From Escherichia coli (GTDB lineage Bacteria > Pseudomonadota > Gammaproteobacteria > Enterobacterales > Enterobacteriaceae), in the NCBI RefSeq assembly GCF_044324875.1, contig NZ_CP172188.1: 64,000 bases of DNA; one strand, 5' to 3'. The notes beneath the pieces were generated by a model. It ran no database searches. It saw only the letters and a list, made by a program, of their open reading frames with translations, and had not been told where the DNA came from. Below are positions 24,607-32,500 of the stretch, in pieces. A program made the translations under genes and the position numbers. Position 1 is the stretch's first letter. Each line of letters begins with the position of its first letter.

Positions 24607-24636
24607 GAAGCCCGCCTGGTTGAGCGGGCTTCTTTT
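24607..24636. terminator. hairpin terminator between convergent genes
   Basis: GAAGCCCGCCTGGTTGAGCGGGCTTCTTTTC. Confidence 0.6.
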
Positions 24637-25016
24637 CAAATATTGGAACCATATAGTTCACGTAGTTTTTTCGCTACTGAAGATACGGGGATTTCACCAG
24701 TTGCAGCCCCCACTGCAAGCTCCACCAGCACGGGATCATCATATACCTGTATACCGTTACGGCGTAGAAATAGCAGCGCACTGTTTAGCGCGGTACGCTT
24801 ATTGGCATCATTGAATATATGCCCTCTCGCCGTAGCCACCAGGTAGGTGGCGGAGACTTCGAAAAGGTCGGTGATCTCTTCGTAGGCAACTCTGGCCTGA
24901 ACTCTCCCGATAATGGCCTCTGCCCTACCCGGATCTGACATTCCCGGCAGGCCGCCGTAGCGGCTTATATTCGCATCATGAAGCGCAATAAGTTCTTCCG
25001 GTGATATATGCCTCAT
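24636..25016 (-). CDS. doc: Doc toxin (Fic-family kinase) of the phd-doc addiction module
   Basis: 126 aa [40 protein letters not shown]...; essentially the P1 Doc sequence as I recall it. Confidence 0.93.
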
Positions 25017-25237
25017 TATCGGTTAACCAGTTCCTTGTTGGTGGAGTCCAGGGTGTCAAACAGGGATGCAAATTCGGCATCCAGCGCCGCTTTTTTGTAG
25101 GCTTCAAAAGTAGCCTTGCTGACAATTACTGCTGGCTCACGGCCTCTGCGGGTGATTTCAACCTCTTCCCCGGCTTCAACATTGTTGAGCACTTCAGAAA
25201 GGTTGCCACGCGCGGTACGGAAGTTAATGGATTGCAT
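25016..25237 (-). CDS. phd: Phd antitoxin
   Basis: 73 aa from second Met: [49 protein letters not shown]...; overlaps doc start. Confidence 0.93.
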
Positions 25238-25309
25238 AAACACCTCGTGTACTCGTTATGTGTACACAATTATAAACTTCACAGGCATAAAGCACCAGCA
25301 CTTTGCAGC

Positions 25310-25699
25310 TTAAATAACCGGACAATCATCAAATTCCCCACTTCGGGCATCATTGATGACATGAGTGATCACACCAAAAACAGCATTACTGCCCGTGTAT
25401 CCATCGTCATCTACTGGTAACGCCTCTTTCTTCCCGGTGCTTAAGTCCTCCAGGTGCTGGCGCGGATACTTCCTGTATCTCTTTATGCGATATTCACCCT
25501 CCATAGCGCACACAAGCAGAGAACCATCAACCGGAGTAAGCGAGGAATCAACCACCAGCAAAGCACCCTGCAATATTCCCTCACGGTGATGGCTATCAGC
25601 TGCCCGCATGAAGTAGGTCGCTGAAGGATGTCTAATTATCTGCTGATCAAGAGAAATTCGGCTTTCAACATAATCCGCCGCAGGAGAAGGGAAGCCCAT
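25310..25699 (-). CDS. humD: HumD (UmuD'-like, LexA/S24 peptidase family)
   Basis: 129 aa; FPSPAADYVESRISLDQQIIRHPSATYF ... AVFGVITHVIN parallels UmuD. Confidence 0.75.
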   Translation of the reverse strand: MGFPSPAADYVESRISLDQQIIRHPSATYFMRAADSHHREGILQGALLVVDSSLTPVDGSLLVCAMEGEYRIKRYRKYPRQHLEDLSTGKKEALPVDDDGYTGSNAVFGVITHVINDARSGEFDDCPVI

Positions 25700-25717
25700 A
25701 GCGTTTTACCTCAATGA

Positions 25718-25737
25718 TACTGTTTATTCATACAGTA
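25718..25737. promoter_or_regulatory. LexA box (SOS operator) in the humD promoter
   Basis: TACTGTTTATTCATACAGTA = CTGT-N8-ACAG palindrome about 20 nt upstream of the humD start. Confidence 0.7.
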
Positions 25738-25822
25738 TACATTGAAAAGGCATAGTTTGTGAAAGCGGGGTTTGTAGGCGCGCCACGCTGGGGGCTAATC
25801 ACATTTCTCCCCCATCTTGCCG

Positions 25823-26074
25823 TTATTTTTTTGGTGCATCCTCGTTCTGATACACCGGATCGCTCCCTTTTGGCAACTGGAGGCTTAACTGCCGGTAGTG
25901 CCGTAGCCGTTCCATGAAATAGGCGCGCAGGTTTTCCGGTTGCTCACGGGCCACCTGCTCTGCAATCACAGGTATATTCAGCCGTTCTTTGTAAGCAACG
26001 CCGCTGGCGGCAAGGTCTACGTTCACCTTGTCTCGCTCTTCCTGGCTTTTAGCTGCTATATTTCGATCTGACAC
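25823..26074 (-). CDS. hot: Hot (homolog of DNA polymerase III theta subunit)
   Basis: 83 aa; [43 protein letters not shown] parallels E. coli HolE. Confidence 0.75.
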
Positions 26075-26106
26075 AAGAAACCTCCAGGAGTTAGTGGATC
26101 AGGCAC

Positions 26107-26457
26107 ATGCACAATAACGTTCTCAATGTTAGCCGTTCAATTCAGACAATCAGAGACTGCACCAGTGTGGTGGCATCAATCCCATTGCGAAACAGCATAG
26201 ACGAACTGCAAATTCGTGTATTGAATCCGAATCAGGCTAATAAGCAATTGCGCTTTATTTTGACGCTGAAAAGTGAAACAGAGGGGATAAAGCACAGCGT
26301 AAAAGTGTTTTCTGAGGCCATTCTGCTTAATGGGAAGCTCCGGCATCTGGTAAGGCCAGAACGTCAATATCCTGACGTCCTGGCGCGTGAAAAAGACCTT
26401 CTTTCTGAAGTTCAGGATAGGGTGATCGATTTCGTCAAATGCTATCCCCTGCATTGA
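26107..26457 (+). CDS. hypothetical protein
   Basis: 116-aa ORF, ATG start. Confidence 0.4.
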   Translation: MHNNVLNVSRSIQTIRDCTSVVASIPLRNSIDELQIRVLNPNQANKQLRFILTLKSETEGIKHSVKVFSEAILLNGKLRHLVRPERQYPDVLAREKDLLSEVQDRVIDFVKCYPLH

Positions 26458-26726
26458 GGGCAGGTGTTCCCTTCCGCAAAGTAGGGAAAACTGCTATCAA
26501 GTTCATCACACCATCTGCGATGGTCGTAGCACCAAAACGCCTCCCACGGCGCACGGAAATACTTCATCCACCAGGACACCCGATCAGGTATATCTGCTGG
26601 TGGCAGTTCTTCTGGCAATAATTTGCCTGATAATTCCCTTTCCGCCCGCGACAGCATTTTTTTGAGGCTCGCGTTCTCTTTTTCAAGCTCATCTACGCGC
26701 ACCTGTAATTCAGCTTTCGTTGGCAT
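26442..26726 (-). CDS. hypothetical protein (start set at internal Met)
   Basis: ORF 26442..26807; likely start MPTKAELQ...; short coiled-coil then Cys/Trp-rich C-terminus. Confidence 0.35.
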   Translation of the reverse strand: MPTKAELQVRVDELEKENASLKKMLSRAERELSGKLLPEELPPADIPDRVSWWMKYFRAPWEAFWCYDHRRWCDELDSSFPYFAEGNTCPQCRG

Positions 26727-27582
26727 GGTCCGCCTCATGCTTTTCAGCCACCAGCGGCAATAAAGCCCTGGCCATCTTATGAACCAATAATGCATCAATA
26801 ATGCCAAGCGTATGCCCCGGCTTAATGTTTAATGCCGCCTCAAGGTGACACCTTTCCAAGCCACTTTTCTCGGCTTGTTTATGATGATCTGGTGTAATAA
26901 CGTCGCCCAAAACACGGCTAATTCTTTCTCGTAATTGCTGGGTGCCCGCACACTTGATCGCTGTATCGTGGAGACGGTTAACCAGTTCGCGATAAACATG
27001 CGGTTTAATGCGGATACGTTCACCGGTGACGCCCTTTCCTGGCACTGGCACCGAACTATCCGGAATATCCGGATAGTTGCCAGCCAGTCTACGCAAAACA
27101 GCCTTAATTGCATCAATACGGTCATCATCAACTTTTTCTACAATATTGGAATTTAAATACTTCGAAGCCTTGCTATGCCAATCGCTGGTTTTAGGGTCTT
27201 GTCCATCCATCAAACGCCAAGCTTCAGCGATTAACTCATAGCCAGTAACAGTGGCTTCCTGCGCATCACCAATCAGTTGTGTGATCTCTCTTTCAAGCAT
27301 GCTTAGAGCGTTAGGCATTGGTTTTTCTTCCGGTACTACTGGAACGGGGGGAGCGGCGTAGACCTCAATAATTCCATTATCAATAGGCCATTCTCCATCC
27401 TTGAGGTAGTCACTTGTGCCGTCAACTTGCTGTTCTGCAATGTGGAATGCACCTATTGGTTTTGCTTCCAGCGATGCCAGAGCAATTTCATAAGCACGGC
27501 GCTCAATATTGTCTCTCACATCCAGGCTACCTATGCGCTCTTTGATTTCTTTAATCAGTTCTTTGTCGGTTAAAGTGGTCAT
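26710..27582 (-). CDS. hypothetical protein; shares a module with the IS-disrupted gene at 36077..36796
   Basis: 290 aa; segment LHDTAIKCAGTQQLRERISRVL matches LRDVAIECHGTDQLRARLSNTL in 36077..36796. Confidence 0.5.
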   Translation of the reverse strand: MTTLTDKELIKEIKERIGSLDVRDNIERRAYEIALASLEAKPIGAFHIAEQQVDGTSDYLKDGEWPIDNGIIEVYAAPPVPVVPEEKPMPNALSMLEREITQLIGDAQEATVTGYELIAEAWRLMDGQDPKTSDWHSKASKYLNSNIVEKVDDDRIDAIKAVLRRLAGNYPDIPDSSVPVPGKGVTGERIRIKPHVYRELVNRLHDTAIKCAGTQQLRERISRVLGDVITPDHHKQAEKSGLERCHLEAALNIKPGHTLGIIDALLVHKMARALLPLVAEKHEADHANES

Positions 27583-27896
27583 TTGTTAATCCTCAAAACT
27601 TTATGCCCGGGCGCAAAAGCACGCGTTTTGTCTTTGCTTATTCGCCAGCCATCCTTGCGCGCCTCTTTTGCACAGCCAGCCCATGACGTACCGATATACT
27701 CACCGAAGTCTGGTGATTGATATTTACCATTTGTACACTGGCGACAATCACAGTAGAGATGCATGGTGTAACTTGCGGCAATAGCCATATCAGGCTCCTT
27801 TAGTGCGCAAGTGGTTTTTCCAGCGGTTTTGCGCCGCGCTGCGCTTATCTTTGATTCCCTCTCTGGCAATTCCAGAAAATGAAAACAACACCACAC
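27579..27896 (-). CDS. hypothetical Cys-rich protein
   Basis: 105 aa; YCDCRQC and WAGC motifs. Confidence 0.4.
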   Translation of the reverse strand: MWCCFHFLELPERESKISAARRKTAGKTTCALKEPDMAIAASYTMHLYCDCRQCTNGKYQSPDFGEYIGTSWAGCAKEARKDGWRISKDKTRAFAPGHKVLRINK

Positions 27897-28326
27897 AGCG
27901 ATTGCTAACTCTCAACCACTGGCTGGGATAGCAAAGTCTGTATACACGGGAGATAAGCATCTTAGCTTTACGGTTTTTCATCGCACTGCGTACCCCTTCT
28001 CTCGTCTGTTACGCGATGTGGTGGGTTTATAGTTAAATGCGAATACCACCCTACCAAACATGCCGATCACCGCCCGTTTGTGATTGCTGATTGGTAGCTT
28101 CTCGTACCCCGTCGAACGCGATAAAAGAAGTAATTTTGCTTTACGGTTTTTCATCGTTTTGCTCTCCTGCGTCTCTTTGCTGCTCGTCGTGCCGCTGCAA
28201 TACCGGTATGGCGGCGCTTTGGTGCCGGGATGATGTTGTCAGCCATCAGTACATGCGGCTTTGCAATTAGCGCAGAAGCCCAAAAACGAGTCGGGTATGG
28301 TAATAAACCGATAAACGCGACACGCA

Positions 28327-29037
28327 TTACGCACCTCCTTTGATGCGAATGCCTGCGGCGCGTGGCACATTAACTTCCACGATGCGCACTGTTGGTTTGT
28401 ACATCTCAATCGCTGTCAGCCAGTCAGCTCCTGTCATGCGCTTTTCCGCATCGCCATTAGTCCACTTAACCGGTACACCAATAGACTTCATCGCGATTTC
28501 TATTTCCCCGGCGATGGCGCTTTTTCCGCAACCAGTAAAACCAGATACAACGACAAGAACTTCGCCTTTGGCTGGTTTTATTTCCCGTGCTTCCTGCCCT
28601 GATTTGCGCAGCAAAACAGCGTACTTTAATGCGTCCTGGGCTTTCTGAAATTTCAGTGCATAGTCAGTGGCGATTTTCTCCAGTTCAGCAATACGCTTAC
28701 TCCCATCCGAGATAACACCTTCGTAATACTCACGCTGCTCGTTGAGTTTTGATTTTGCCAACTCCAGTTGTTTTGTTAGTTCCGCAATACGGCAAACATC
28801 GTTGATACGCGTTTCCTCTAATGCGTTGATCTCATCCAGCAGCGCCAGCACGGTAGCCGGATTGGCTGCGGCGATGAATTCAGCATCACGAGATTCGTTT
28901 TCACTGAACACCATAGCTATTTGCTCATGGTTTATGCCGTCAGTGGAGTAAATCTCATCGTCGAATTCAACAGCCCACTTACCTTTCGTAGCCTTCTCTG
29001 CCGCCTCACGCAGTGCCTGATAGTCAATCTTGCTCAC
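28327..29037 (-). CDS. Ea22/Ead-like family protein (paralog 1)
   Basis: 236 aa; N-terminus MSKIDYQALREAAEKATKGKW typical of lambdoid Ea22-like proteins. Confidence 0.6.
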   Translation of the reverse strand: MSKIDYQALREAAEKATKGKWAVEFDDEIYSTDGINHEQIAMVFSENESRDAEFIAAANPATVLALLDEINALEETRINDVCRIAELTKQLELAKSKLNEQREYYEGVISDGSKRIAELEKIATDYALKFQKAQDALKYAVLLRKSGQEAREIKPAKGEVLVVVSGFTGCGKSAIAGEIEIAMKSIGVPVKWTNGDAEKRMTGADWLTAIEMYKPTVRIVEVNVPRAAGIRIKGGA

Positions 29038-29714
29038 TGGTTGCCTCCTTTGCGAAGCTGGGCAGCAAAGTCAACTAACCACTCAGTCATTTCAACCTTC
29101 CCTACCAGGTCTGAACCAGGGTGCATACAGCAATCACTCTGCACCGCTTTGAAATCCTTATACTCATATTCTTGGGCCACCAGATTTTTTGCAGCTTCTA
29201 TAGCAGCATCCACCCCCTGCGCCCGGACTTCAGCCAGGAAAGCATCAGTGGTTGGCGTTTCAGGTATCTGTCTCCTCATCCGTTCTATTGCATGATTGAA
29301 CCCGAAGTCTTCCGCGAGAGATACGTCATCCATATTGTCATTGTCATCCTCAATATCCCGTGATTCTGGAATTGCAGACTTTATTCCCGCATTCTCCGCT
29401 GCCAGCGCCGCGCACTTGGCTTCAAGAGCGGCAACCACTTCCTGATGGTCTTTGTACTTAACGTATGAGCCGGAGATGTCATCACCTTCGGTGTTTAGCC
29501 ATGCGTCATTGCAATTCACTGCGTAGGTTCTGATGCTGATGCTCTCCCGCCCCTGACAGACGCCAGGCCAGTCAATAAAGTATCCGCAATGCCTACCCTC
29601 AGACGTGCGCGCAGGATAAATGCCGTTATGACCCGGCAAAATATATGCTACCCATTCATCTTGCGTTGCCTGTTCCGCCGCCTCGCGCAGTTCTTGATAG
29701 TTAATTTTGCTCAC
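29034..29714 (-). CDS. Ea22/Ead-like family protein (paralog 2, mosaic)
   Basis: 226 aa; N-terminus MSKINYQELREAAEQATQDEW; C-terminal module [17 protein letters not shown]...QLRKGGNQ shared with 32990..33757. Confidence 0.6.
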   Translation of the reverse strand: MSKINYQELREAAEQATQDEWVAYILPGHNGIYPARTSEGRHCGYFIDWPGVCQGRESISIRTYAVNCNDAWLNTEGDDISGSYVKYKDHQEVVAALEAKCAALAAENAGIKSAIPESRDIEDDNDNMDDVSLAEDFGFNHAIERMRRQIPETPTTDAFLAEVRAQGVDAAIEAAKNLVAQEYEYKDFKAVQSDCCMHPGSDLVGKVEMTEWLVDFAAQLRKGGNQ

Positions 29715-30402
29715 TGGTTGCCCCCTGAATACGCTTAAACTCGATTACCCACACCCAAGGATTAGCGTTCCAACTATCTTCGCCATAAATTGATTTCCAT
29801 AGGCTACGGAAACTTGGGTAATGCTTATCGCCAATGAGGGTCGATTCTGTTGGTGCGCCCTCAGCCCTTGCATCGCATTCGCTGATATCGTTCAACCGCT
29901 CAACGCGCACGTTGGTAATTTCCAGAAGAATGCGCGATGCCCAGCGCGGCATGTGAATTGATGGACACCACCCGCCATCAAATTTTTCATTCACAGTGTG
30001 AGGTTTCCAGTCGGCATCATCGGGTATCGACCACAAGCCGTAATCACCCGGCTTTTGCTCACAACTGGCCCGATAAATCCTTGCTGCGTTCTTCTCATCG
30101 CCACGACAAAGGTTGTCGTTCCAGTCCACACTGCAACCATCCTCATTGCCTAATATCGCCCACGCCTCACGGACCCATATGCGATCACCAACGTTACCGA
30201 ACGGGCATAAACCATGTTCAGGCGCATCCATAACGTGGGTATAGACACCATTGCGTTTCTTTGTCGGTTTACGGATAACCAGGCAGTTATCGGCCCTGAC
30301 ATTTTTTACAGGTCGGCGAGTCTGCGTCTTCCTTCCTTCGAGGATGGCCCTGACCATCTCATCGTTAAAAATCATCCCGCATTCTTTCATTTTTTGATCC
30401 AC
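29701..30402 (-). CDS. hypothetical phage protein, possibly ASCH-domain-like
   Basis: N-terminal MIFNDEMVRAILEGRKTQTRRP resembles ASCH-type proteins; from memory only. Confidence 0.35.
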   Translation of the reverse strand: MDQKMKECGMIFNDEMVRAILEGRKTQTRRPVKNVRADNCLVIRKPTKKRNGVYTHVMDAPEHGLCPFGNVGDRIWVREAWAILGNEDGCSVDWNDNLCRGDEKNAARIYRASCEQKPGDYGLWSIPDDADWKPHTVNEKFDGGWCPSIHMPRWASRILLEITNVRVERLNDISECDARAEGAPTESTLIGDKHYPSFRSLWKSIYGEDSWNANPWVWVIEFKRIQGATSEQN

Positions 30403-30406
30403 CTCA

Positions 30407-31402
30407 TCAGTTATTGAAAGTGATCACTCCGCGCTCGATGGCGAAGTCAAAAAGCTGGTTAGCGGCTACGTAAAGGCGTATGCCATGTGCTTTTTCCCAT
30501 GCCCGGACATCGTTTTCTGCGCTTCTGGCGCAGTCATCGCAAAGAGGAACAGCCCAGCGGTCGTGTTCGTTTAACGAGCGGGCGCGGTATATGAACGGGT
30601 GGTTAACTTTGCCACCGCATCCGATGCACGGACGAGAAACCACAAACCGGAGATAAGCCGGGCTTTTACCGAGGACCGCTTTTGGTCGGCGCATATAAAG
30701 CAGGCCGGAATCCTCATCTACAGACAGGTTGACGATCTGCTCTGCGGTTATGTCCACCAGCTCGCGGGTACTGTGCTCCCAGGTGATATCTGATTCTTTC
30801 AGCGTACCGGTAGGGATTTCAGTTTTTGGCTGACAAAATGCAATGCGACCGGCTTCATCTGGCAGCTCATCTTTCAGATTCCGGCGAATGGCCCAAAAAG
30901 TGAGTTCAACCATGCTCAGATCGCGTTCTGGCGGTAGTTTTAACTCGCTCGCAGCCCAGTTCATAACCCAGTTGGCACGATTCAGGGATAACTGGTCGTC
31001 CAGCTTGCTGTACCCCTTCATCATGTATTCCGCATCATGCTTCCAGCACAGGCGAACGGCAGAGCCGTTATAGAAATGAGTGGTTAGCTGGTGGCTGCAA
31101 TCGCGCTTATCGTGCGCCTGGCAATCGTGGATATTGGAACTTACCCAATGAACAAGCGAATCTTCACCGCCCAACGCGTTAAATACGCGCTCGCTTTGAA
31201 AAAACGGTTTCAGAGACTGGTTGGCAACCAGCGAATAATTCAGATCCACTACGCCATCTGGCGTGTTTTCAGCCTGTTCACGCGGAAGTGGGGAGATAAT
31301 GAAACGGCGACCTACGCCAATGTAGTTACTGGTGGGCTTGTCTACCGGAAAGACAGCCACACCAGCTCCGTTTACGAAATGAGGTGTGATTATTGCACTC
31401 AT
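30407..31402 (-). CDS. hypothetical protein with C-terminal Cys-cluster (zinc-binding) motif, DUF968-like
   Basis: 331 aa; C-terminal RPCIGCGGK ... VPLCDDCAR. Confidence 0.45.
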   Translation of the reverse strand: MSAIITPHFVNGAGVAVFPVDKPTSNYIGVGRRFIISPLPREQAENTPDGVVDLNYSLVANQSLKPFFQSERVFNALGGEDSLVHWVSSNIHDCQAHDKRDCSHQLTTHFYNGSAVRLCWKHDAEYMMKGYSKLDDQLSLNRANWVMNWAASELKLPPERDLSMVELTFWAIRRNLKDELPDEAGRIAFCQPKTEIPTGTLKESDITWEHSTRELVDITAEQIVNLSVDEDSGLLYMRRPKAVLGKSPAYLRFVVSRPCIGCGGKVNHPFIYRARSLNEHDRWAVPLCDDCARSAENDVRAWEKAHGIRLYVAANQLFDFAIERGVITFNN

Positions 31403-31443
31403 AATGTATACCGACTCTGTTTTGTTCCGAGCGGTAAAATAAT

Positions 31444-31477
31444 ATGTTAGAAAACTAAAATCAATGTTCTAACACAT
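31444..31477. promoter_or_regulatory. paired (inverted) operator-like motifs
   Basis: ATGTTAGAAAACTAAAATCAATGTTCTAACACAT: TGTTAGAA ... TTCTAACA inverted halves; upstream of the 30407..31402 gene. Confidence 0.5.
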
Positions 31478-31499
31478 TTTGAGTGCGTAAATGATTTGA

Positions 31500-32192
31500 T
31501 CAGACTTTAAGCTGTCCTCCCTTCACCTGCATTAGCGTCAGATTTCCGCAAAAAACCGCGCCCGTGTCTATGTAGTGCTGATTCCAGTATGCTTTTGGTC
31601 TTCGTACCGGTGTGTGCCCAAAGATAAAGCGATCTGCGCCTGTGATTTCTCCACCAATGCCATCTATCGAATCACCGACGCGACTGCGCGACCAGACAAC
31701 ATCAAAAAGCGACACATCCTTACCGAACTGGTACTCTCCACCTGGATAGTCGGCATGGGCTATAACGATAGTTTCATGCCCGGTGTTCAGCTCAATGATA
31801 TAGGGCAGACGCTTTACCAGCTCCACCAGCGCCCTGGCTAATATTTCCTGATCAGTGTCCAGCATGAAGAACCATTGACCGCCATTCATTAGCCAGTTAT
31901 TCACATTGCCTGCGGGACTTAACGCATCGATCATTAATCGCTCGTGGTTTCCCATAACCGACCGAAACCAGGGCATCTGCAATAGCTCCAGGCATTCAAC
32001 ATTTTCGGCGCCGCGATCGATAAGGTCGCCAACCGATATCAGTAAATCCTGTGTCGGGTCAAAATCCACACGATGGAGTTCATTCATAAGTAGGGTGTAG
32101 CAACCGTGCAAATCACCAATAACCCATATGTTTCTGTAGCCTGAACCATCAATACGGCTATATAAATTCACTTCATGCAGAGCCTGGATCAT
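31500..32192 (-). CDS. Ser/Thr protein phosphatase (lambda PPase / calcineurin-like metallophosphatase)
   Basis: Motifs GDLHG, GDLIDRG, GNHE; ATG overlaps upstream stop (ATGA). Confidence 0.85.
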
Positions 32193-32500
32193 GCGGCAAC
32201 CTTCTCCCGCAGCCAGATACAAACTGGACCATCTTCAGTGTCATGAATAGAGCCAACAAACCAGCCTTCACCCTCTGGTCGCTCCGGTTCCCAGGCGGCA
32301 ATATCGGGACCAGCTGCGTCCAGATCAAAATCATCTTCATCCATACTGCGAATAGTCCACTGAAGATTATTTTCCTTCATCCAGGCGTCAAATTCCTCAG
32401 TGGATATATATTCACGACCTGCGCAAAACTTTTCATACTCCGGATGTGTCCAGCAGCCATATTCATCACGTTCTACCGGCATTTCTTTAATGATGCTCAC
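32189..32500 (-). CDS. hypothetical protein
   Basis: 103-aa ORF in the same minus-strand gene array. Confidence 0.45.

Follow-up and report, generated by a model that had tools for sequence, protein, structure and literature searches.

What do three very small open reading frames, packed one behind another on the minus strand after an Ea22-like gene, encode, and are they protein-coding genes at all? The question was raised by a 64,000-nucleotide stretch of Escherichia coli DNA (hereafter the window, meaning the whole stretch analysed), in which a reading of the letters without database searches (the sequence-only reading) had noticed three tandem minus-strand ORFs below the usual ORF cut-offs and had suggested that they might specify regulators or toxic peptides. 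The ORF listing and the sequence itself confirm that the three ORFs are there; of the coordinates given for them in that reading, the first set stands and the other two needed shifting by 1-2 nt. They are numbered here ORF1 to ORF3 in the direction of transcription (Table 1). The window is matched best by ~90-kb, non-mobilizable plasmids of E. coli and by phage RCS47 (Punavirus); from these matches and the neighbouring doc, phd, humD, hot and lambda-type phosphatase genes, therefore, the window is recognizable by sequence as belonging to a P1-like phage-plasmid. [quoted passage not shown]

Table 1. Features of the three-ORF locus and its surroundings, with positions counted in the window; SD, Shine-Dalgarno; KD, maximum Kyte-Doolittle mean over 19 residues.
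Feature	Coordinates	Strand	Product	Remarks
doc	24636..25016			
phd	25016..25243			
humD	25310..25699			
hot	25823..26074			
Gene after ORF4, overlapping ORF4	26710..27582	minus	290 aa	relatives annotated as DUF551 domain proteins
ORF4, downstream of ORF3	27579..27788	minus	69 aa	four Cys; phrog_926, E=6.3e-36
ORF3	27790..27981	minus	63 aa, ATG start	PHROG 1380, 'last copy' type; tail ...SAAQNRWKNHLRTKGA; pI 11.5; Lys+Arg 16; Asp+Glu 2; KD 0.85
SD-like AAGGGG before ORF3	27993..27998	minus		within the KGYAVR-tail codons of ORF2; kept in relatives
ORF2	27978..28154	minus	58 aa, ATG start	PHROG 1380, 'internal copy' type; tail ...NRREKGYAVR; pI 11.6; Lys+Arg 15; Asp+Glu 2; KD 0.75
SD-like AGGAG before ORF2	28164..28168	minus		within the basic-tail codons of ORF1; kept in relatives
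ORF1	28151..28327	minus	58 aa, ATG start	PHROG 13831; pI 12.0; Lys+Arg 15; Asp+Glu 1; KD 1.25
SD-like AAAGGAGG before ORF1	28334..28341	minus		within the end of the Ea22-like gene; read from sequence
Ea22-like gene just upstream of ORF1	28327..29037	minus	236 aa	Pfam Ead_Ea22, E=3.5e-25
First Ea22-like gene, same overlapping gene string	29034..29714	minus	226 aa	Pfam Ead_Ea22, E=3.8e-27
Lambda-type phosphatase gene	31500..32222			

Minus-strand genes overlap or abut without a break from ~31402 to 26710, and the three ORFs form part of this string. They follow the second of two Ea22-like genes in the direction of transcription, not the first, as had been proposed. The stop codon of this upstream gene and the ATG of ORF1 overlap as TAATG, and the ORF1/ORF2 and ORF2/ORF3 overlaps are ATGA each, exactly as the sequence-only reading had stated; the ATG of ORF4 stands 1 nt past the stop of ORF3 (TGATATG), and its SD, AAGGAG, lies within the final codons of ORF3. 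SD-like motifs precede all three ATGs at normal spacing (AAAGGAGG, AGGAG and AAGGGG for ORF1, ORF2 and ORF3 respectively). The earlier view of a packing tight enough for translational coupling is supported. The ATGA start context is present in 83 of the 83 distinct copies examined of PHROG 1380, the family of ORF2 and ORF3, and an SD-like motif is found at all 83 copies; at the ORF2 and ORF3 starts ATGA comes with the MK beginning of the protein, because codon 2 is AAA. Neither a promoter-like site nor a convincing terminator-like site was found between these genes. Since stop and start codons overlap and an SD precedes every start, the three ORFs, to judge from this anatomy, probably share a transcript with the Ea22-like genes and rely on coupling or re-initiation for their translation. 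Rfam covariance models gave no match in 27790-28327 at E<=1, and a non-coding RNA reading of the interval was rejected on that ground. The lone Rfam match in 25000-32000, to mir-67, was sub-threshold and fell outside the three-ORF interval.

Each ORF matches a phage protein family over all or nearly all of its length. ORF3 aligns with phrog_1380 at E=1.3e-32 (residues 1-62 against positions 1-61 of 62) and ORF2 with the same profile at E=4.1e-22 (1-58 against 1-60 of 62), while ORF1 matches phrog_13831 from end to end (E=4.5e-40; 1-58 against 1-58 of 58). Conservation of the reading frames was judged on the best copy per locus in 80 viral contigs that encode relatives. None of these 80 copies is interrupted by a stop codon or a frameshift, and they are intact ORFs of 58-63 codons, the exceptions being one 108-codon read-through and three copies with alternative starts. 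Values of pN/pS (Nei-Gojobori), calculated among the sequences of one subgroup (DNA identity 75% or more) and then pooled, ranged from 0.08 to 0.45 per subgroup in the called frame (0.35 in the ORF2 subgroup, n=10; 0.45 in the ORF3 subgroup, n=23) and came to 0.24 for PHROG 1380 and 0.15 for the ORF1 family when pooled. In the other frames, antisense excepted, the pooled values were 1.04-1.95 for PHROG 1380 and 0.85-8.2 for the ORF1 family. Antisense values were low as well (0.45 and 0.18 respectively), which we attribute to the coincidence of antisense third codon positions with sense ones. An antisense gene opposite ORF1, where one frame is stop-free with low pN/pS, was considered but rejected, as the frame lacks any start codon ahead of 28230. 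The possibility, allowed for in the sequence-only reading, that the frames are not conserved in homologous regions is therefore at odds with what we find, frames open at 80 of 80 loci and pN/pS lowest in the called frames.

The pattern of substitutions points the same way. Third positions dominate the variable sites (13/12/44 by codon position in the most diverged subgroup), and residues that do not vary are written with several synonymous codons, such as Ser26 (AGC, AGT or TCA), Arg59 (CGC, AGG or AGA) and Gly37 (four codons), with two or three synonymous codons apiece for Asn3, Arg4, Lys5, Ala6 and Lys7 across the PHROG-1380 relatives. Fixed residues with varied codons are expected under selection on the protein, and not under selection on the DNA or RNA. 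On this comparative evidence, ORF1, ORF2 and ORF3 are real, conserved, dispensable accessory protein-coding genes. None of the three ORFs is listed as a novel gene in the supplements of the EHEC Sakai RIBOseq work (one data set, from cultures assumed to be uninduced), an absence that is expected if prophage early genes were repressed.

Constraint is not equally visible along the string. ORF1 combines a fairly hydrophobic N-terminal half with an Arg/Lys-rich C-terminal tail (PKRRHTGIAAARRAAKRRRRAKR), and the tail region is read in three different frames among its relatives. A 1-nt deletion swaps the basic tail for an acidic one that ends at a TAA inside the MKNRK codons of the next gene (locus L001 and protein clusters on ~100 contigs, versus an intact form on well over a thousand contigs), and in Stx phages ORF1 carries an in-frame 7-codon deletion. 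In eight loci ORF1 is cleanly missing, the end of the Ea22-like gene (...CATCAAAGGAG) being joined straight to the ACGCAGGAGAACAAAACG-ATG leader of a PHROG-1380 gene. Compared in this way, ORF1 looks less constrained than ORF2 and ORF3, notably in its tail. We also considered ORF1 as a degenerate paralogue of ORF2 and ORF3 and rejected this origin, since the hhalign match between them comes from the MKNRKAK of fusion proteins inside the ORF1 alignment.

That ORF2 and ORF3 both start with MKNRKAK had been seen from the sequence, and the match of both to PHROG 1380 makes them paralogues. Their proteins are 33% identical, and the sole identical block in their DNA is 19 nt around the start (CGATGAAAAACCGTAAAGC), beyond which the two diverge; a recent tandem duplication is rejected on these two figures, and by the same comparison ORF2 and ORF3 are old, diverged paralogues within the family. 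Members of PHROG 1380 keep an M(K/N)NRKAK N-terminus with a hydrophobic stretch, a central (V/I)SN(R/H)(R/K), one Gly and K-x-SAAQNR, and between these motifs they fall into at least six subtypes with strong differences. The His in the SNH of ORF2 is Arg in most members.

Tandem PHROG-1380 copies number one, two or three per viral locus (three in L038), and the end of each protein is related to the place of its gene in the array. All 22 distinct internal copies, i.e. those with another copy after them, end in ...NRR(K/E)KGYAVR, and of the 61 copies that stand last or alone, 60 have the ending ...NRWKNH...; the same body is found with either tail (L004 versus L038, and also P0062). The last 8-13 codons depend on the following gene because they carry its leader and SD. 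Across these loci, comparison of the sequences shows the C-terminal tail following position, not subtype, and the genes acting as cassettes swapped at SD-bearing junctions, a neat but unsurprising case of phage mosaicism. The surroundings vary too, the genes usually standing after an Ea22-like gene, with or without ORF1 between, and being followed by ORF4, by a gene of the DUF551 type or by a further Ea22-like gene. Longer members of the family are read-throughs or fusions with these neighbours (the Ea22 N-terminus, ORF4 or a DUF551-type gene), and domain fusions were for this reason rejected as a clue to function.

The families are widely distributed. DNA searching with the 801-nt region gave matches in 1118 of the 5426 complete E. 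coli genomes and 199 phage records, such as those of phiV10, the O157 typing phages, RCS47 and a large number of Stx phages; carriers of the families include the Stx phages 933W and Sakai Sp5. A tblastn search with ORF3 retrieved 144 phage records, HK225 and the P1-like D6 among them, in which the match is often unannotated. Exhaustive profile searching of 1.84 billion representatives returned only 49 clusters, all of them small proteins of the PHROG-1380 kind, and a second profile built on the most distant members returned 176 proteins, from Enterobacteriaceae for every hit whose source names the organism. The names of the latter are generic ('hypothetical protein', 'prophage protein') except for the Ea22 fusions, which are also the only ones with a Pfam domain.

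The same gene order as here is found in phiV10 (p49, p50 and p51), with DNA 93.9% identical over 83% of the query, and the annotators of that phage called all three ORFs and already recorded the resemblance of p50 to p51. Other examples of PHROG 1380/13831 are ECs_1168 of Sakai Sp5 and ORF09 of Min27. What differs between phiV10, its relatives and the present element is copy number (one to three) and the combination of subtypes, neither of them an essential difference, and the module here resides in a P1-like phage-plasmid and not in a lambdoid or epsilon15-like phage. The module of small genes is also present in 933W, where L0069 and L0065 flank it, an arrangement that has been described as ea22 split by insertion (PMC8614690).

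Annotation of these genes has been inconsistent. Their exact sequences are public as 'hypothetical protein' (ORF3 on 56 contigs, ORF2 on 6 and ORF1 on 32), while the RefSeq record of RCS47 annotates only the ORF2 equivalent and PGAP skipped the ORF2 equivalent in one E. coli chromosome. The GenBank record of 933W calls none of the three and over-extends L0068 across the PHROG-1380 gene, and in Sakai ECs_1168 is called with the ORF1 homologue left in a 151-nt gap. Literature searches by sequence motif and locus tag, and through papers on exo-xis and P1-like plasmids, found no study of these ORFs. They are, then, already known, uncharacterised phage genes, of which the sequence-only reading was a correct observation.

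Given that these are genes, what kind of protein do they encode? All three products are very basic (pI 11.5-12, with ~25% Lys+Arg), and a Kyte-Doolittle scan with a 19-residue window found no membrane-spanning hydrophobic segment in ORF1-3; by composition, they are soluble, highly basic mini-proteins. With the family alignment as input, AlphaFold2 predicts for ORF3 a helix (residues 4-15), three strands (20-26, 29-34 and 39-44) and a second helix (49-61) at moderate confidence (pLDDT 68, pTM 0.32), and in this predicted model the polar residues that PHROG 1380 conserves lie at three places: where helix 1 begins, in the turn joining strands 1 and 2, and where helix 2 begins. The model of ORF1 is poor (pLDDT 61.7), with a C-terminal basic helix. 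Helix, three strands and helix is also the order of elements in dsRBD and HicA folds. At ~60 aa, the predicted order in ORF3 recalls dsRBD/HicA-type domains, and three-stranded-sheet DNA-binding domains as well, as leads only.

Searches with the predicted structures and with the sequences gave little to extend these leads. Foldseek against the PDB retrieved no dsRBD, HicA-type or three-stranded-sheet DNA-binding structure (best E 0.64), and the sole return from BFVD was a family member from phage Av-05. Pfam, NCBIfam and PADLOC models, run on the single sequences at curated and relaxed thresholds, gave no match, toxin and antitoxin domains included, nor did Pfam run on every member of the family alignment at E<=10. 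Among PDB sequence profiles we found only a chance SSAQNRK match in the MS2 coat protein (E=2.3) and, for ORF1, a light-harvesting peptide matched over the hydrophobic stretch (E=0.024).

The overall explanation that we regard as best, and as likely, is that ORF1-3 are real accessory cassette genes in a coupled string, with nucleic-acid binding as a guess at what their products do. The products would bind nucleic acid (DNA, RNA or the ribosome) and, through this binding, would tune the expression of phage or host genes early on, in a role that is dispensable. Judged from charge alone, a regulatory, nucleic-acid-binding role is plausible; that the basic products actually bind nucleic acid or the ribosome as early expression modulators is a tentative suggestion, weakly drawn by analogy, and one that may well prove wrong. 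Similar modulation has been proposed for other small proteins encoded beside ea22 in lambdoid phages (PMC8614690, PMC3824215), among which the exo-xis genes are described as early ones influencing the lysis-lysogeny decision (PMC8614690, PMC3824215). Like the exo-xis genes, the genes considered here belong in Stx phages to the early leftward operon and come after ea22, and they are of similar size, dispensable and variable in presence among phages. Unlike them, they encode proteins for which no sequence or fold relationship to the exo-xis proteins was detected, and Phi24B, the model Stx phage for exo-xis work, is without these ORFs and has the Ea22 N-domain and the DUF551 domain together in one gene. 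A bolder form of the suggestion is that PHROG 1380 could be a new class of phage nucleic-acid- or ribosome-binding mini-protein, with a fold of its own, conserved basic helices at both termini and an exchangeable three-stranded middle that would set specificity. We consider this a long shot; if true, phages would keep tandem PHROG-1380 cassettes, one to three per genome, that shuffle to retune host or phage expression in early infection.

Three other explanations of the locus compete with this one. The toxic peptides of the sequence-only reading belong to the first, according to which the ORFs encode toxic or growth-inhibiting peptides, a toxin-antitoxin-like module, with one product poisoning the host and an adjacent one counteracting it, or early host-killing genes of the lambda Kil kind. 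The genes are small, overlapping and co-oriented in a prophage accessory region, and, two or three in number and overlapping by the 4 nt ATGA, they resemble type II toxin-antitoxin pairs; extreme positive charge is common among proteins that are toxic on overproduction, and the ORFs are close to Ea22-like, early host-takeover-type genes. However, the products are without a membrane-spanning segment, no toxin, antitoxin or defence model matched them, and fold searches retrieved neither HicA-like nor other small toxins. The copies number from one to three and their partners on both sides vary, ORF1 and ORF4 included, which leaves no fixed pair of the type II or HicA sort, and ORF2 and ORF3 are paralogues, not two distinct partners. 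The suggestion of toxicity is disfavoured by the absence of a hydrophobic segment, of a toxin-family match and of a fixed pair, and we think it unlikely to be right.

Variable accessory regions often house counter-defence genes, and the ORFs might be specific protein-binding factors, such as inhibitors of defence systems or modulators of the Ea22-like or DUF551 proteins, in which the variable middle of PHROG 1380 would set the target. The high variability of the middle between subtypes with conserved ends, the presence of different subtypes together in tandem arrays, the strong though non-obligatory association with Ea22-like genes and the position of the genes in variable accessory regions (the region as defined in PMC9603915) are all in line with such a role. 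No characterised family matched, though, no partner gene is consistent, and selection on the middle is purifying and not diversifying inside each subtype, so that we rate protein-targeting of this kind as quite unlikely.

We find it very unlikely that the ORFs are non-functional as proteins and that their sequence is kept for ribosome relay from the Ea22-like gene to the genes further down and for short junction homologies in mosaic recombination, even though the SD of the next gene sits in the 3' end of each ORF, the type of tail tracks position, ORF1 tolerates three tail frames, a 1-nt frameshift, the Stx in-frame deletion and outright absence, and annotation pipelines differ on which of the three ORFs to call, for the called frames have pN/pS of 0.15-0.24 against ~1 or more elsewhere (antisense, at 0.45 and 0.18, excepted), fixed amino acids use several synonymous codons, including AGY/TCA serine switches, the conserved SNRR and Gly37 are mid-protein, away from the junctions, and a mere coupling spacer would need no 58-63 conserved codons. 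For ORF1 alone, this explanation is somewhat more probable, but still improbable.

We return, therefore, to accessory cassette genes in a coupled string as the preferred account, with no sign of an unusual mechanism in these genes. The value of the result is modest: inconsistently called ORFs of fewer than 65 codons are settled as real conserved genes, and the locus shows that small phage genes are exchanged at junctions bearing ribosome-binding sites, so that what comes after a gene decides the final residues of its protein. With DNA matches in roughly one in five complete E. coli genomes, O157:H7 Stx prophages included, the families are common, and assigning them a function would therefore label thousands of genes at a stroke.

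The combination of doc/phd, humD and hot with a lambda-type Ser/Thr phosphatase gene identifies the window as a P1-like phage-plasmid (coordinates of these and other features are collected in the table). A 116-aa plus-strand ORF is oriented against the minus-strand operon, and its equivalents, gp049 of RCS47 and one on plasmid NZ_CP076307, are annotated as 'hypothetical protein'.

Coordinates of the small-gene module, its relatives and neighbouring genes
Feature	Location	Strand	Remarks
doc/phd toxin-antitoxin pair, humD, hot	window 24636..26074		
116-aa ORF	window 26107..26457	+	between hot and the DUF551-type gene
Small-gene module with flanking genes	window 26710..29037	-	
ORF4	window 27579..27788	-	69 aa, PHROG 926 match
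GTG-extended ORF4	window 27579..27896	-	105 aa; overlaps ORF3 out of frame
C-terminal extension, second Ea22-like protein	gene 28327..29037	-	~residues 158-236
Lambda-type Ser/Thr phosphatase gene	window 31500..32222		
Frameshifted ORF1	L001 2529..2714		1-nt deletion; proteins P0131, P0137, P0141
PHROG-1380 tandem array	L038 1194..1737		58, 60 and 63 aa
Module region in 933W	L003 1261..3727		
Corresponding region in phi24B	L089 2830..3735		

ORF1, the small gene directly 3' of the second Ea22-like gene, is precisely missing in eight viral loci (L013, L016, L019, L021, L044, L076, L079 and L081), where the Ea22-like gene, ending in ...gcattcgcatcaaaggag, runs directly into the acgcaggagaacaaaacg-ATG leader of a PHROG-1380 gene, with the join ~45 nt ahead of position 2501 or 2328, depending on the locus. 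Such a precise absence, read together with the sequences at the join, suggests that ORF1 was gained or lost via recombination between short repeats containing the Shine-Dalgarno-like motif. Where ORF1 is retained its tail also varies: a 1-nt deletion (AAAG-GCC) produces a frame-shifted, acidic tail (...EQNDEKP), which terminates at a TAA within the codons for MKNRK in the following gene and is carried by ~100 contigs. Two other relatives, P0144 and P0146, use the third frame of the same DNA and are fused to MKNRKAK.

The PHROG-1380 genes that follow (ORF2 and ORF3 in the window) reach three copies in the largest array observed, on a single viral contig, in which three different subtypes stand in tandem behind an ORF1 homologue. 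Five further proteins (P0002, P0053, P0156, P0189 and P0190) are fusion products with illegitimate joins in the small-gene region, combining the Ea22 N-terminus with PHROG-1380, the PHROG-1380 N-terminus with ORF4, or PHROG-1380 with the DUF551-type protein. In PHROG-1380, the motif SAAQNR(W)K, at residues 48-55 of ORF3, resembles SSAQNRK of the MS2 coat protein, a likeness that is not significant (E=2.3) and that we take as chance.

ORF4, downstream of ORF3, contains four cysteines (HLYCDCRQC...) and found no match in Pfam or PDB. Its GTG-extended version, to which the 933W L0068 annotation corresponds, is probably an over-extended call. At the other end of the module, the C-terminus of the second Ea22-like protein is extended by ~80 aa that include a Walker-A-like motif, GFTGCGKS, and give weak Pfam matches (APS_kinase, E=0.011; AAA_16, E=0.13); the protein would be an Ea22 N-domain with a P-loop-like tail of unusually small length.

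The small-gene module as a whole is flanked by the Ea22 N-domain gene and the DUF551-type gene. In phi24B the Ea22 N-domain and the DUF551-type domain form a single gene, vb_24B_6c, without the small ORFs, and the ea22 of 933W is split by an insertion according to a modelling paper (PMC8614690). Ea22-type genes may have been repeatedly invaded or separated by the small-gene module.
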